From an uncultured Oscillospiraceae bacterium (GTDB lineage: Bacteria > Bacillota > Clostridia > Christensenellales > CAG-138): 64,000 nucleotides of DNA. Location: positions 3,288 to 67,287 of the forward strand of contig CAZXRQ010000001.1 in the NCBI GenBank assembly GCA_964642795.1, written 5' to 3'. The translations under genes were made by a program, and so were the position numbers. This document shows positions 11,480-58,356 of this stretch, piece by piece. The stretch's first letter is position 1. Every line of letters begins with the position of its first letter. Below the pieces are notes generated by a model. That model had not been told where the DNA came from, did no database searches, and saw nothing but the letters and a program-made list of their open reading frames with translations.

Positions 11480-12766
11480 ATGGAAGCAAAATCCCGACGC
11501 CATACCATGTTCACAAAGCCGGAAAAGGGTTGGATAATGTATGACTGGGCCAATTCCGCATATTCTATTTTTATCGCGGTTGTATTGCCGCTGTTCGCTG
11601 CCAGCCTTGCGGCGGAGGCGGGGGTGGATACCGTTACACACACTGCAAACTGGGGCATTGCAAGCTCGATAGCCTGTGCGATAGTTGCCGTGTGCGCGCC
11701 GATACTTGGCGCAATGGCGGATTACAAGGGGTTAAGGAAGCGCTTTTTTATTGCGTTTTTCATAATAGGCGTGCTGTCTACCGGCATAATCCCCGTAGTA
11801 AACAACTATATGGCCATACTTATAATATACGGCGTGACCAACTTTGGCTTTGCGGGCGCAAATGTGTTCTATGATGCTTTTTTGATCGACGTTACCACGG
11901 TGAACCGTATGGATAAGGTGAGCACGTGGGCGTTTGGCATGGGATATATCGGCGGCAGTACGATACCGTTCCTCGTGACCATAGCCATGTCCACATTCGG
12001 CCATCTTATCGGAATAACCGGTGCTATGACGATGCAGATTTCCGCACTGATTACTGCGGTGTGGTGGGCTGTGTTCACAATACCGTTCCTTAGAAACTGC
12101 AAGCAGCTTACCTCCATTCAGCCGGAGCGCGGGATAATTTCCAGCAGCTTCAAGCAGCTGGGGAATACGCTTAAGCACATCAAAAAGCACAAGTTCCTGT
12201 TCCTGTTTTTGATTGGCTACTTCTTCTACATCGACGGCGTAGGCACAATAATCAAAATGGCAACCACATACGGCTCAGCTCTGGGTATTGACGATACCGC
12301 GCTGATGATAGGCTTGCTTATAACGCAGGTAGTGGCGTTCCCTTGCGCGATACTATACGGTAACCTCGCTGCAAAATACTCCGCCAAGCGTATGATACTC
12401 GTGGGTATATGCACCTATTTCGGCGTGTGTTTGGTAGGGTATTTTATGTGCAAGGCATGGCATTTTTATCTGCTTGCGGCGCTGGTGGGTACGGCACAGG
12501 GCGGTATACAGGCGCTTTCGCGCAGCTACTTTGGCAAGCTTATCCCCGATAAGACGCGCGCAGGCGAATTCTTCGGGTTCTATAACATATTCTCCAAATT
12601 TGAGTCCGTGCTGGGCACGGCGCTTATGGCGCTTATCGTGAGCCTTACCGGCAATGTCAACGCAGGCGTGCTCAGCGTGCTTGCCATGTTTATTATAGGT
12701 GGCGCGATAACACTGCGCGTACCTGACGATAAGGGCATGGCAGCGGCGGAGGATACTGCGACATAA
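11480..12766 (+). CDS. MFS transporter (UMF1/Atg22-like family)
   Basis: About 12 TM helices. N-terminal [14 protein letters not shown] is typical of the UMF1 family. GAGGGGAG RBS lies 10 nt before ATG 11480. The track start at 11429 is a TTG overlapping the previous ORF. Confidence 0.8.
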
Positions 12767-56005: not shown

Positions 56006-57331
56006 ATGTACGAGAACAACGGCTATACCAACGATTATCAACCGCAGGGCTACTATGAAAAACCGGCGGGCGGAAAGCGCGGAGCGGGCGGCTATATTAT
56101 TACTGCGCTTATCGCTTTTATCGTCGGCGTGATGGTGGCGAGCGTGTTTTTTATTTACTTCAAGGATGCTGGGGATACAGGGCTTGCGCTGCTGCCTACG
56201 CCTAGCGCAGGGGTTCAGCCGGAGGCCACACCGGATACTTCGGAGGAAGCCGGGCAGACACAGGCGCCTGAGCTTACGCCTACGCCAACCGAGCGTGTAA
56301 TGCCTGAGCTGGACGGTACGGCGCCGGTAATAGGGGACAGCAGTAATCCCATTCCGGATATTGTGGAGCAGATATCGCCGGGCGTCGTAGGTATTACCAA
56401 CTACGCGTATTCATATGAATACGCCCGGGATGTGGAAGCTAGCACCGGCAGCGGATTCATCATATCCACGGAAGGCTACATACTCACCAACGCCCATGTT
56501 GTTGAGGGCGCAAGCAAGGTAACTATCAACTTCACGGACGGCGAGGAAATAGAAGCTGAACTCGTAGGTTACGACAAGACGTCCGATATAGCGGTGCTCA
56601 AGATCGAAAAGGCCGGCCTTACCGTGCTGAAGCTGGGAGATTCCGATACGGTGCGCGTGGGAGAATTCGTAATAGCTATAGGCGATCCTACTGGGCGCGA
56701 GCTGGCGGGCACCACCACGTTTGGCATAATCAGCGCCACCGCGCGCGAGGTCAACATCGACGGTGTATCCAACGAATACCTGCAGGCCGACGCCGCGGTG
56801 AACCCCGGCAACTCCGGCGGGCCGCTGCTGAACATGGCCGGAGAGGTAGTGGGCGTGACCAGCGCAAAGACCGTTACCGCGAGCTATGACGAATACGGCA
56901 ATGCGATAGCGGCGGAGGGTCTGGGATTTGCGCTTCCTATAAATTACGCTATGGATATTGTTGAGCAGCTTATTACAAACGGCAACATACAGCGCCCCGG
57001 CATAGGCATAAGCGTTATCACCATCGACGAGCTTTCTGCCGAGCAGTATGGTGTACCGCAGGGCATACTGGTATATACGGTGACTAAGGACGGACCGGGC
57101 GATAAGGCAGGGCTTGAGCCCAACGATATTATCGTTGAGTGCAACGGCGCTGCGCTTACGGATCAGGATCAATTCGTGGCGATGGTCAAGGCTTACGGCG
57201 TGGGTGATACCCTGGAGCTCAAGGTGTGGCGCTCCGGCAGCTATATGAACGTTGAGCTTACGCTTGCGGATCTCAATACGCTGGGAAGCGAGCTCATAGG
57301 CGGCGAAGCCGACTTTGAGTTCTTTGACTGA
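56006..57331 (+). CDS. htrA: HtrA/DegP-family S1C serine protease with PDZ domain, membrane-anchored
   Basis: TM helix. Catalytic triad contexts TNAHVV, DIAVLK and GNSGGPL. C-terminal PDZ domain (GILVYTVTKDGPGDKAGLEPNDIIVECNG). Confidence 0.92.
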   Translation: MYENNGYTNDYQPQGYYEKPAGGKRGAGGYIITALIAFIVGVMVASVFFIYFKDAGDTGLALLPTPSAGVQPEATPDTSEEAGQTQAPELTPTPTERVMPELDGTAPVIGDSSNPIPDIVEQISPGVVGITNYAYSYEYARDVEASTGSGFIISTEGYILTNAHVVEGASKVTINFTDGEEIEAELVGYDKTSDIAVLKIEKAGLTVLKLGDSDTVRVGEFVIAIGDPTGRELAGTTTFGIISATAREVNIDGVSNEYLQADAAVNPGNSGGPLLNMAGEVVGVTSAKTVTASYDEYGNAIAAEGLGFALPINYAMDIVEQLITNGNIQRPGIGISVITIDELSAEQYGVPQGILVYTVTKDGPGDKAGLEPNDIIVECNGAALTDQDQFVAMVKAYGVGDTLELKVWRSGSYMNVELTLADLNTLGSELIGGEADFEFFD

Positions 57332-57347
57332 CGTTCAATTAACAACT

Positions 57348-57374
57348 AAGGCGGCTTAAGGGCCGCCTTTTTGT
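57348..57374 (+). terminator. htrA intrinsic terminator (copy 1 of an exact 29-bp direct repeat, 57346-57374)
   Basis: Stem AAGGCGGC (57348-57355) pairs with GCCGCCTT (57362-57369) around a 6-nt loop, with a T-run through 57372. Confidence 0.85.
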
Positions 57375-57580
57375 CTGTCGATAAACCCCGGTATTATTAA
57401 GGGCCGCAGCCCTTAATGTAAAATCCGGTCTGACGACAGGTGCGTCAGACCGGAAGGAAAATCGCAGATTTTCCCTGCTCCTCTCAGTCTTTGCCGCCCG
57501 GGAGCCTAAAGGCACAGCCTGTAGGCAAGAGGCAAAGACTGCAAGCTCGAAAAAGTCAATATTGACTTTTTCGACAGGCT
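57375..57580. other. 206-bp hairpin-dense insert with inverted ends (candidate MITE-like element or structured sRNA)
   Basis: Five consecutive perfect-stem hairpins at 57396-57417, 57424-57454, 57456-57474, 57485-57541 and 57547-57574. The ends CTGTCGATAAA and the reverse complement CTGTCGAAAAA match 10/11. No ORF of 60 aa or more. Confidence 0.5.
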
Positions 57581-57582
57581 CT

Positions 57583-57609
57583 AAGGCGGCTTAAGGGCCG
57601 CCTTTTTGT
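57583..57609 (+). terminator. Second, identical terminator (copy 2 of the 29-bp direct repeat, 57581-57609)
   Basis: Base-for-base identical to 57346-57374 (CTAAGGCGGCTTAAGGGCCGCCTTTTTGT). Confidence 0.8.
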
Positions 57610-57665
57610 TTGCAGCGTATGCTTTGTGGGAATAATAGCCGCAAAACAAGGAGGATGCGGCAATT

Positions 57666-58271
57666 ATGATAGGTATGAGTATACGCGTTTTGCGCGGACT
57701 TTGTGTAGGACTGGCCGGCGCGGCTTTGTTTGGCGCGGGTATGGCGCTTGGATACATTATAGCGCCTCAGGACGGGTCCGGTGATGATATACAGGCTCAG
57801 CATGAGTCTGGCGCGCCATATGCGAGCGCTACGGATATTTCGACGGAGAAACCGGACGCTGCGGCCGTTGGCGCGTCTGAGATAATTGTTGGGGTCAACA
57901 CCCGCGCCGTATTCAGCTATACGTTCAGCGGCTGCGGTCATACGCTGGATGTGCTTACCGATGACGTGACGGGCATGAATGAATCCGATGTGCGCACGGC
58001 TTATCCGAATAAGCGCATAGTAGAGTTTACACAGGAGCAGGTCGTTCTGCTGGAAAAGCTTGACGGATGCTGCCCAATGCATTATTATGTTCGGCTTGAA
58101 AACGGACGGGTTGTGGTTACACGGCGTGACGAACAGACGCTTGACCCCTGTGTTGTGGCTGAGTTTTCTCCTCCGGAGACGAGCGATGAGCAGCTGGCCG
58201 AGCTGACCGAAGGGTTGGTTTTTGACTGCCTCGAGGATATCAACGTGTATTTTGAGAGTTACGGCAGCTGA
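57666..58271 (+). CDS. Membrane-anchored protein, possibly BofC-like (sporulation checkpoint) domain
   Basis: AAGGAGGA RBS before ATG 57666 and an N-terminal TM helix. The C-terminal segment VVLLEKLDGCCPMHYYVRLENGRVVVTRRDEQ resembles the BofC beta-domain pattern. The position next to ruv genes mirrors B. subtilis bofC-ruvAB synteny. Tentative. Confidence 0.4.
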   Translation: MIGMSIRVLRGLCVGLAGAALFGAGMALGYIIAPQDGSGDDIQAQHESGAPYASATDISTEKPDAAAVGASEIIVGVNTRAVFSYTFSGCGHTLDVLTDDVTGMNESDVRTAYPNKRIVEFTQEQVVLLEKLDGCCPMHYYVRLENGRVVVTRRDEQTLDPCVVAEFSPPETSDEQLAELTEGLVFDCLEDINVYFESYGS

Positions 58272-58356
58272 GCGTTGGCAAAATGAGGTTATCATGGTAA
58301 AATAGCCATATATACAGTCTGTACGAATGCGGGTACACAGTATCGGAGGACGCGCC

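Follow-up and report, generated by a model that had tools for sequence, protein, structure and literature searches.

The 3' end of htrA in the 64,000-nucleotide stretch of uncultured Oscillospiraceae DNA analysed here (hereafter the window) raises the question of why one gene should be followed by two identical terminators with 206 bp of nearly continuous hairpins between them. We call this segment X (57375–57580, + strand). It is a five-hairpin cassette whose limits are set by its match to a second copy in another contig, L014. The original prediction, made from the window alone, offered two explanations: a non-autonomous palindromic element that had inserted at, or duplicated, a terminator, or a small RNA gene carrying its own copy of the terminator. 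The former is supported by the exact boundaries of X, by the L014 copy, by a diverged homologue (X') at a third locus and by sites in relatives that resemble empty ones. Our preferred answer, held with somewhat better than even confidence, is that X is a copy of a non-coding, non-autonomous mobile DNA element, defined by its structure, which inserted at the htrA terminator and duplicated it. The family is previously undescribed and is represented in at least two lineages of uncultured Clostridia that have diverged at the level of the family.

The duplication of the terminator is exact. As first reported, the 29-mer CTAAGGCGGCTTAAGGGCCGCCTTTTTGT is present at 57346–57374 (T1, + strand) and again at 57581–57609 (T2, + strand), the spacing being 235, and the repeat reaches 32 nt at 97% identity with one mismatch. 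Each copy was also rightly taken for an intrinsic terminator, both scoring with 9 pairs (6 of them G-C), a 4-nt loop and a T-run. In T1 the stem-loop (57348–57369) is followed by TTTGT, has a DNA hairpin energy of -10.2 kcal/mol and lies 14 nt 3' of the htrA stop codon; the 5' foot of T2 is 2 nt past the end of X. The distance from the end of the T2 hairpin to the next ATG is 62 nt, and the corresponding values in the related contigs L006 and L009, measured by eye, are about 74 and 64. Without X and one terminator the htrA spacer would shrink from 334 to 99 bp; the intervals from the stop codon to T1 and from T2 to the next start codon are the usual ones. Among the three loci described below the 29-bp flank duplication is seen at htrA only; the duplicated terminator is locus-specific and therefore not part of X. 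A 25-nt core of the terminator, AAGGCGGCTTAAGGGCCGCCTTTTT, occurs exactly in two unrelated metagenome contigs (L012 5960–5984 and L013 8690–8714), where reading of the flanks gave as neighbours a succinate-dehydrogenase-like gene upstream and an adjoining alanine-dehydrogenase/transhydrogenase-like gene. Since the same 25-mer ends unrelated genes there, the terminator hairpin is convergent or generic and is not diagnostic.

All five hairpins of X lie where they had been predicted, with perfect stems, and each gives a DNA folding z-score of -3.8 to -5.6. On the + strand these are H1 (57396–57417; 9-bp stem, CGCA loop), H2 (57424–57454; 12-bp stem, 7-nt loop), H3 (57456–57474; 8-bp stem), H4 (57485–57541; an 11-bp outer stem around an inner 9-bp hairpin at 57504–57526) and H5 (57547–57574), a 28-nt perfect palindrome whose 3' arm bears the right terminal motif (57567–57577). 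The left end of X and H1 are 21 nt apart, and 6 nt separate H5 from the right end. The region as a whole folds far better than shuffled versions of itself (z about -10 on either strand), and of the 12 perfect hairpins with stems of at least 9 bp in the window, 3 are found within these 180 bp. The five hairpins show no sequence relatedness to one another, and nothing else in the window resembles X, which is single copy there. Its ends are inverted, as had been claimed: the left terminal motif CTGTCGATAAA (57375–57385, + strand), which is identical in the L014 copy, matches the reverse complement of CTGTCGAAAAA at 10 of 11 positions. This is the sole exact pair in the window, matches with at most one mismatch numbering 4 against 1.1 expected. 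The reuse in H1 of 11 nt of the terminator (TTAAGGGCCGC) is likewise real, an equally long flank-versus-insert match being reached in 3 of 300 shuffles. On the minus strand a promoter-like site, TTTACA-18-AATAAT (10/12; window 57422–57393), spans H1 and is directed outwards across the left end of X, in antisense to the upstream gene; its score in L014 (662–691) is 9/12, and X' lacks it. In the window copy H2 together with TTTTACATT scores as a minus-strand terminator.

The second copy was found by comparing concatenated six-frame translations of the insert with a set of 5.8 billion proteins, the match being to a spurious 196-aa ORF (P0122). By blastn, window 57375–57580 corresponds to L014 709–504 with 189 of 206 identities (92%) and no gaps, and the homology stops exactly at 57375 and 57580, the flanks being unrelated. 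The genes of L014 also differ from those of the window locus, and specify a Zn-ribbon/DUF7577 protein and a serpin-like ORF. The copy starts 15 nt 3' of the stop codon of the Zn-ribbon membrane-protein gene, in the same orientation as that gene, and is followed by 3 nt and then by a terminator hairpin different from T1 and T2; there is no repeat resembling these. In window and L014 alike a terminator hairpin follows X closely, its 5' foot being 2–3 nt from the right end. With X removed, the tetranucleotide composition of L014 correlates with that of the window at r = 0.871; the value for a conspecific contig is 0.875, and family-level relatives give means of 0.47–0.69 in 2.2-kb chunks, the best single chunk reaching 0.78. 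Judged by composition, L014 probably represents a different locus in the species of the window or in another of its genus. Deleting X and 13 adjoining nt from L014 restores a perfect 11-bp terminator stem, which suggests that X there was inserted into the 5' arm of this stem. Beyond X, L014 113–503 contains about 390 bp more of non-coding DNA without similarity to the window, and in it another terminator-like hairpin (GGCGGCTGACCCGAAGGCTTCAGCCCGCC GTTTTGT). A match between the L014 flank and H2, considered as a sign of targeting guided by base-pairing, was reached by 38 of 300 shuffles and is not significant. Another candidate, P0123, a 4818-aa tandem-repeat protein with 21 low-identity stretches retrieved in a six-frame search of 1.84 billion representatives, was judged to be a compositional match.

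A profile of the window and L014 copies hit a third locus in contig L017 (nhmmer, 1.3e-13), and the covariance model aligns the same DNA (L018 12034–12213, equivalent to L017 5034–5213) over its full length with 75.9 bits (E 1e-19). The host of this homologue, X', is the 'Firmicutes bacterium ADurb.Bin248' type species, the HtrA of which is 57% identical to that of the window. Here the cassette is found one gene further on, between the orthologue of the ca. 200-aa gene that follows htrA and the ruvC promoter, again in sense orientation, and it is identical or differs by 1–2 nt in eight contigs of the host species. Its H1-homologous hairpin (H1'), followed by TTTTATT, constitutes the terminator of the ca. 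200-aa gene. At each of the three loci the cassette follows closely on a gene and is oriented in the same way as that gene.

Further forms are found in relatives of the X' host. L029, whose HtrA is 88% identical to that of the host, has a three-hairpin form that consists of hairpins 1, 2 and 5; in L028 (81%) the spacer is rearranged and contains remnants; and L030 (79%) has a 90-bp spacer without the cassette in which both flanks (AAGTTGCCT, and the GTGTTACAAT promoter) are shared. Because these states are seen among the relatives of X', we conclude that X and X' are gained, lost and remodelled as a cassette at different sites. The L028 spacer contains, at about 12008–12041, the hairpin TGTCAAAAGGCGGC GTGC GCCGCCTTTTTTGACA, the inner stem of which is the stem of the window terminator and the outer arms of which resemble the TGTC...GACA ends of X; it also holds a 13-nt remnant, GACAGGCGAAGCC, of hairpin 4 of X'.

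The hairpins are under constraint and are maintained by compensatory change. Between X and the L014 copy, 4 of 122 paired nucleotides differ compared with 13 of 84 unpaired ones (Fisher p 0.0033), and two of these four paired-site differences make up a compensatory change from U-A to A-U in the inner stem of H4. The sole L014 substitution that might be called breaking improves the proximal pairing of H4. Relative to X', two two-sided pair changes are present in H1 and four in H5. H2 has one compensatory pair as well as G.U variants in L014 and L029. H3 is missing from L029; X' retains it, with two of its pairs changed on both sides and a single mismatch. In H4 of X' the distal 20 nt are missing, the 5' arm pairing with the proximal partner instead. 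In a four-sequence alignment, which was fitted to the covariance model and is to that extent biased towards pairing, 96.9% of the cells pair, two-sided pair changes number 13 against 0 in all slid controls, and the covariation score is 0.262 against 0.131 for shuffled alignments (0/500). Conservation of the hairpins, sites without the cassette and more than one copy were therefore all found, contrary to what would have counted against the original prediction.

X is neither a gene for a protein nor a recognised RNA. The ORF list agrees with the earlier statement that the insert contains no ORF of at least 60 aa, and in its longest open frame the 17 nucleotide differences between X and L014 cause, by our count, 14 amino-acid changes. 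Spurious ORFs have nevertheless been called across the cassettes, of 57 aa by JGI (L020, L021 12034–12207 and L024 6055–6228) and of 196 aa by ENA (P0122). The whole window has no match in Rfam 15 at the gathering threshold, in agreement with the original remark that no known RNA family was recognised; at E<=10 the X region, L014 and X' gave sub-threshold matches to generic hairpins and terminators only. No sense-strand promoter was found in X, L014 or X'. Terminators lie outside the conserved unit, a different one following the L014 copy and none following X', and most of the cassette is preceded by a terminator in two of the three contexts, by T1 in the window and by H1' in X'. The suggestion of a small RNA gene with its own terminator copy is accordingly not supported as it stands: the terminator is external, a sense promoter is lacking, and Rfam provides no family.

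The orthologous htrA sites of relatives lack X. The nearest HtrA homologues among the 5.8 billion proteins are 57–65% identical, so that no close relatives are available for comparison, and an HtrA scan of a genome collection returned only relatives at 34–40%. In five related lineages that share the gene order, the htrA spacer measures 116, 128, 92, 129 and 47 bp as compared with 334 bp here, and none contains the insert. On reading these spacers, a clear single terminator hairpin was seen in three, a short weak one in L015 and none evident in the 47-bp spacer of L017. The single-terminator, empty-site-like spacers that had been sought in relatives do therefore exist. X is a discrete unit with sharp ends, present in different genomic contexts and absent from orthologous sites.

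Profile and covariance-model searches over about 370 kb of loci located copies only in the window, in L014, in the X' species and in L029. Comparison of X with phage and plasmid collections by blastn gave only chance matches of terminator size; X' had no match in the plasmid collection; and exact-pattern and protein-pattern scans of a viral-contig collection were negative. No Y1_Tnp domain was detected in the window.

How X might have come to lie between two terminators can be pictured as follows. Two strand transfers flanking the T stem-loop, one 2 nt before the 22-nt hairpin and the other 5 nt after it, would suffice, and the simplest geometry would be that of a hairpin extruded as a cruciform and attacked at its feet. 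Repair would then copy the 22-nt stem-loop with its 2+5 flanking nt to both sides, to yield T1-X-T2. The outcome would leave T1 with htrA and, for the downstream gene, the terminator-proximal promoter context with T2, X being insulated between the two. Cruciform attack as the origin of the 29-bp duplication would thus account for one clear case, and X would have spread among its sites by transposition. On this scheme the hairpins would not act in RNA; they would be recognised by the mobilising enzyme in the form of single-stranded or cruciform DNA. We favour such a role at the DNA level because no sense promoter exists, because the terminators either lie outside the unit or precede the hairpins, and because H5 is a zero-loop palindrome. 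It is doubtful, though conceivable, that X represents an entirely new class: a promoterless five-hairpin cassette, independent of terminal inverted repeats (TIRs), that is moved as folded DNA and homes to the feet of intrinsic terminators, T1-X-T2 being a natural whole-stem-loop duplication.

Several facts weigh against X being an inserted mobile element. X and X' occupy adjacent spacers of one gene cluster, and an old resident element could have shifted locally. Five hairpins kept by long-term covariation are more typical of a functional RNA or of protein-binding DNA than of a selfish miniature inverted-repeat transposable element (MITE), and the sense strand has the greater number of G.U-compatible variants (4 vs 1–2), a bias compatible with a role in RNA. 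The 29-bp duplication is a single instance, tied to the insertion by the scheme just given. The L014 copy is not flanked by a clean target duplication: all that is present is an imperfect repeat, AG(T)CGGAG, at 1 nt from either end. Around X' in L017 no duplication is evident. Of the 11-bp terminal inverted repeat, X' has only (C/A)TGTC at the left end and nothing recognisable at the right. Three independent loci are known; the 64-kb window contains a single copy, as do about 21 kb of DNA from the X' host. Among the approximately 55 ORFs scanned in the window there is no transposase, integrase, RAYT or Cas gene, and a cognate autonomous element with matching ends was not found.

Some of these same facts would suit a structured non-coding RNA, acting as a 3'-UTR stabiliser or processing platform or as a read-through small RNA, the cassette having been copied to the ends of genes. 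To this we assign an appreciable but distinctly minor probability. It draws on the position of the cassette 9–43 nt after a stop codon and sense to the upstream gene at all three loci, on the thirteen two-sided pair changes and the proportion of paired cells, on the avoidance of stems by substitutions and on the sense-strand bias of G.U-compatible variants; moreover, in L014 the cassette lies between the stop codon and the only terminator of the gene, and must for this reason be co-transcribed. However, there is neither an Rfam family nor an own promoter, and since most of the hairpins come after T1 in the window and after H1' in X', little transcription should extend into them. Hairpins 3 and 4 are dispensable in L029, the cassette is absent from most relatives, and a 28-nt palindrome without a loop, such as H5, is more typical of a DNA site. 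Nor is the sense strand favoured by folding energy; both strands fold equally well, and the measure is uninformative. A role in RNA and mobility as DNA are not mutually exclusive.

Exact 29-bp direct repeats around an insert at the 3' end of a gene also recall attL/attR-type cores, of which X would be the content: a decayed remnant of a larger integrated element, CIME-like, with palindromes such as H5 as possible protein-binding sites. We think this very improbable. The same 206 bp with the same ends are present in L014 without repeats or a T-like core, and the L017 copy has no repeat; a remnant would not have reproducible sharp ends, and the proposal is for this reason largely refuted. The window has no integrase, and the phage, plasmid and viral collections gave no match. 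Least credible of all is local replication slippage or template switching at the terminator, a palindrome genesis in which X would have no identity as an element. The perfection of all the stems and the 11-mer shared by terminator and H1 (p about 0.01) are what such a process might leave, and the T/H1 similarity may yet have arisen in this way; as an account of all of X the idea is refuted by homologous copies at two other loci in other contexts, and X resembles no other part of the window. Two further candidates were rejected. T1 and T2, being palindromic, are also inverted repeats, and with the outward minus-strand promoter-like site might have bounded an inverton; this site is not kept in X', and the Logan contigs break inside X and not at the repeat edges. 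Off-target spacer integration of the CRISPR type, in which a 29-nt repeat would be duplicated, is discounted by the 206-bp size of the insert, the lack of cas genes and the recurrence of the insert elsewhere.

The surroundings of X are those of an ordinary chromosome, as is the 64-kb window in general. The genes specify, in order, MutS2, a 2-thiouracil desulfurase, a response regulator, a histidine kinase, HtrA, [spacer], the ca. 200-aa protein, RuvC, RuvA and RuvB. The htrA gene (56006–57331, + strand) encodes an S1C serine protease with a PDZ domain (Pfam Trypsin_2 and PDZ), its orthologues being found in conserved synteny; inside its coding sequence is a perfect 20-nt zero-loop palindrome, GCGTATTCATATGAATACGC (56405–56424). 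The htrA spacer may, as originally stated, be the largest non-coding gap of the window: in a greedy ORF map two gaps are larger, each of them covered by alternative ORFs. The outer parts of the T1-X-T2 arrangement are identical base for base in contigs from two independent sequencing runs, and the arrangement is consequently real DNA and not the artefact of one assembly. Of the Logan contigs, L001 starts at window position 57544 and L002 ends at 57422; these breaks lie inside X at hairpin boundaries, not in the 29-mer, and the reason may be low coverage, or else that the central part of X is heterogeneous.

The gene downstream (57666–58271, + strand; 201 aa) is orthologous across the relatives and is followed by ruvC, ruvA and ruvB (Pfam). 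A promoter-like site for it, TTTGCA-16-AATAAT (57609–57636, + strand), is left intact by the terminator duplication, and its orthologue in L006 has a similar -10 (GGCATAATAGC) upstream. The label 'BofC-like' originally given to its product is not confirmed: the protein matches no Pfam family, a faint BofC_C match (E 0.19) appearing in a single orthologue, and a word-indexed homologue search with it retrieved only itself. Members of the family are 26–33% identical in alignment, with invariant C90, H92, C136 and H139 and a conserved C-terminal motif resembling GLVFDSLEQINAYFES. Directly 5' of ruvC there is an extended -10-type promoter, CATGGTAAAATA (58293–58304), which was compared in the window, L006, L009, L015–L017 and L028–L030 and is conserved in all relatives, reading TGTTACAAT in the X' clade. 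Since it is kept in the relatives, ruvCAB would appear to have a promoter of its own, independent of the ca. 200-aa gene.

If X is indeed mobile, the few known families of intergenic palindromic mobile elements in bacteria gain a new one, from a poorly sampled lineage of uncultured Clostridia. The htrA locus would then supply a natural example of the duplication of a whole stem-loop, with a bearing on the choice and processing of targets by structure-dependent transposases, and also on the origin of tandem or 'spare' terminators and of long structured 3' regions. Should the new-class proposal hold, these genomes would obtain new terminators and 3'-UTR structure from such elements, since a terminator hairpin can be added or duplicated with every insertion. 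On the practical side, cassettes of this kind break short-read assemblies and are miscalled as proteins, and recognition of the family would clean annotation. On three loci the significance is modest; the evidence for a new family of structured cassettes is good.

Among known systems, bacterial MITEs (Correia/NEMIS, RUP, ERIC and Bcr1) have conserved TIRs, short fixed target duplications (often TA) and many copies per genome. X is like them in its size class (100–250 bp), in being non-coding, intergenic and dispersed with sharp ends, in its potential to alter termination or mRNA stability, and in the short terminal inverted motif CTGTCGAWAAA (10/11) of the window and L014 copies. It differs in the loss of the TIR in X' and in having a locus-specific 29-bp duplication with no clean duplication elsewhere. 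The description of X as MITE-like in the original prediction consequently holds in a loose sense only: X is a small non-coding element, but the family has no fixed short target duplication, and its TIR, present in the window and L014 copies, cannot be recognised at the right end of X'. The palindrome-associated elements of IS200/IS605 (PATEs) share with X subterminal hairpins, a strand-specific orientation and, in two of the three copies, the absence of a target duplication; in contrast, the end hairpins of X are unrelated in sequence and neither TnpA nor TnpB is encoded nearby. The 5-nt left flanks of the three copies are TTTGT, GGAGA and ACGCA (in reverse orientation CTTAG and CGCTC for the window and L014), and because no 4–5-nt target motif is conserved 5' of the element X is not a PATE.

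In bacterial interspersed mosaic elements (BIMEs) the repetitive extragenic palindrome (REP) units belong to one sequence family, alternate in orientation, amount to hundreds of copies and are tied to a RAYT gene. X resembles REP/BIME arrays and REPINs in being a string of extragenic palindromic hairpins after a stop codon, co-oriented with transcription; as in REP/BIME, the number of hairpins varies between related genomes, the hairpins are kept by compensatory change, and side-effects as terminator or stabiliser are possible. The hairpins of X are, unlike REPs, mutually unrelated, are known from three loci and have no RAYT gene in the window, and X cannot be classed here because they are not one repeated unit. 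REPs are described as serving as targets for insertion sequences (PMC1525189). IS1272, a DDE insertion sequence of the IS1182 family with 'structure-dependent transposition', targets stem-loops just downstream of genes, and in pathway b of its published model attack at the 5' feet of a cruciform duplicates the whole stem-loop at both ends of the element (PMC5678879). In all three new insertions reported, the stem-loop was replaced rather than duplicated (PMC5678879). IS1549 and IS1634 make variable direct repeats of 8–514 bp (PMC2266710). X similarly sits at an inverted-repeat or terminator stem-loop a few nt past a gene; at X' the first hairpin is itself the terminator, and in L014 the cassette abuts or interrupts the terminator stem. 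With IS1549 and IS1634 it has in common direct repeats far longer than 14 bp. It differs in being 206 bp long without a transposase and in its 11-bp terminal repeat, not conserved in X'; an insertion sequence with ends matching X was not found, and the resemblance is to the published model. We therefore place X as a new family within a known broad kind, the small non-autonomous palindromic mobile elements, its insertion with duplication of a terminator being its most unusual feature.

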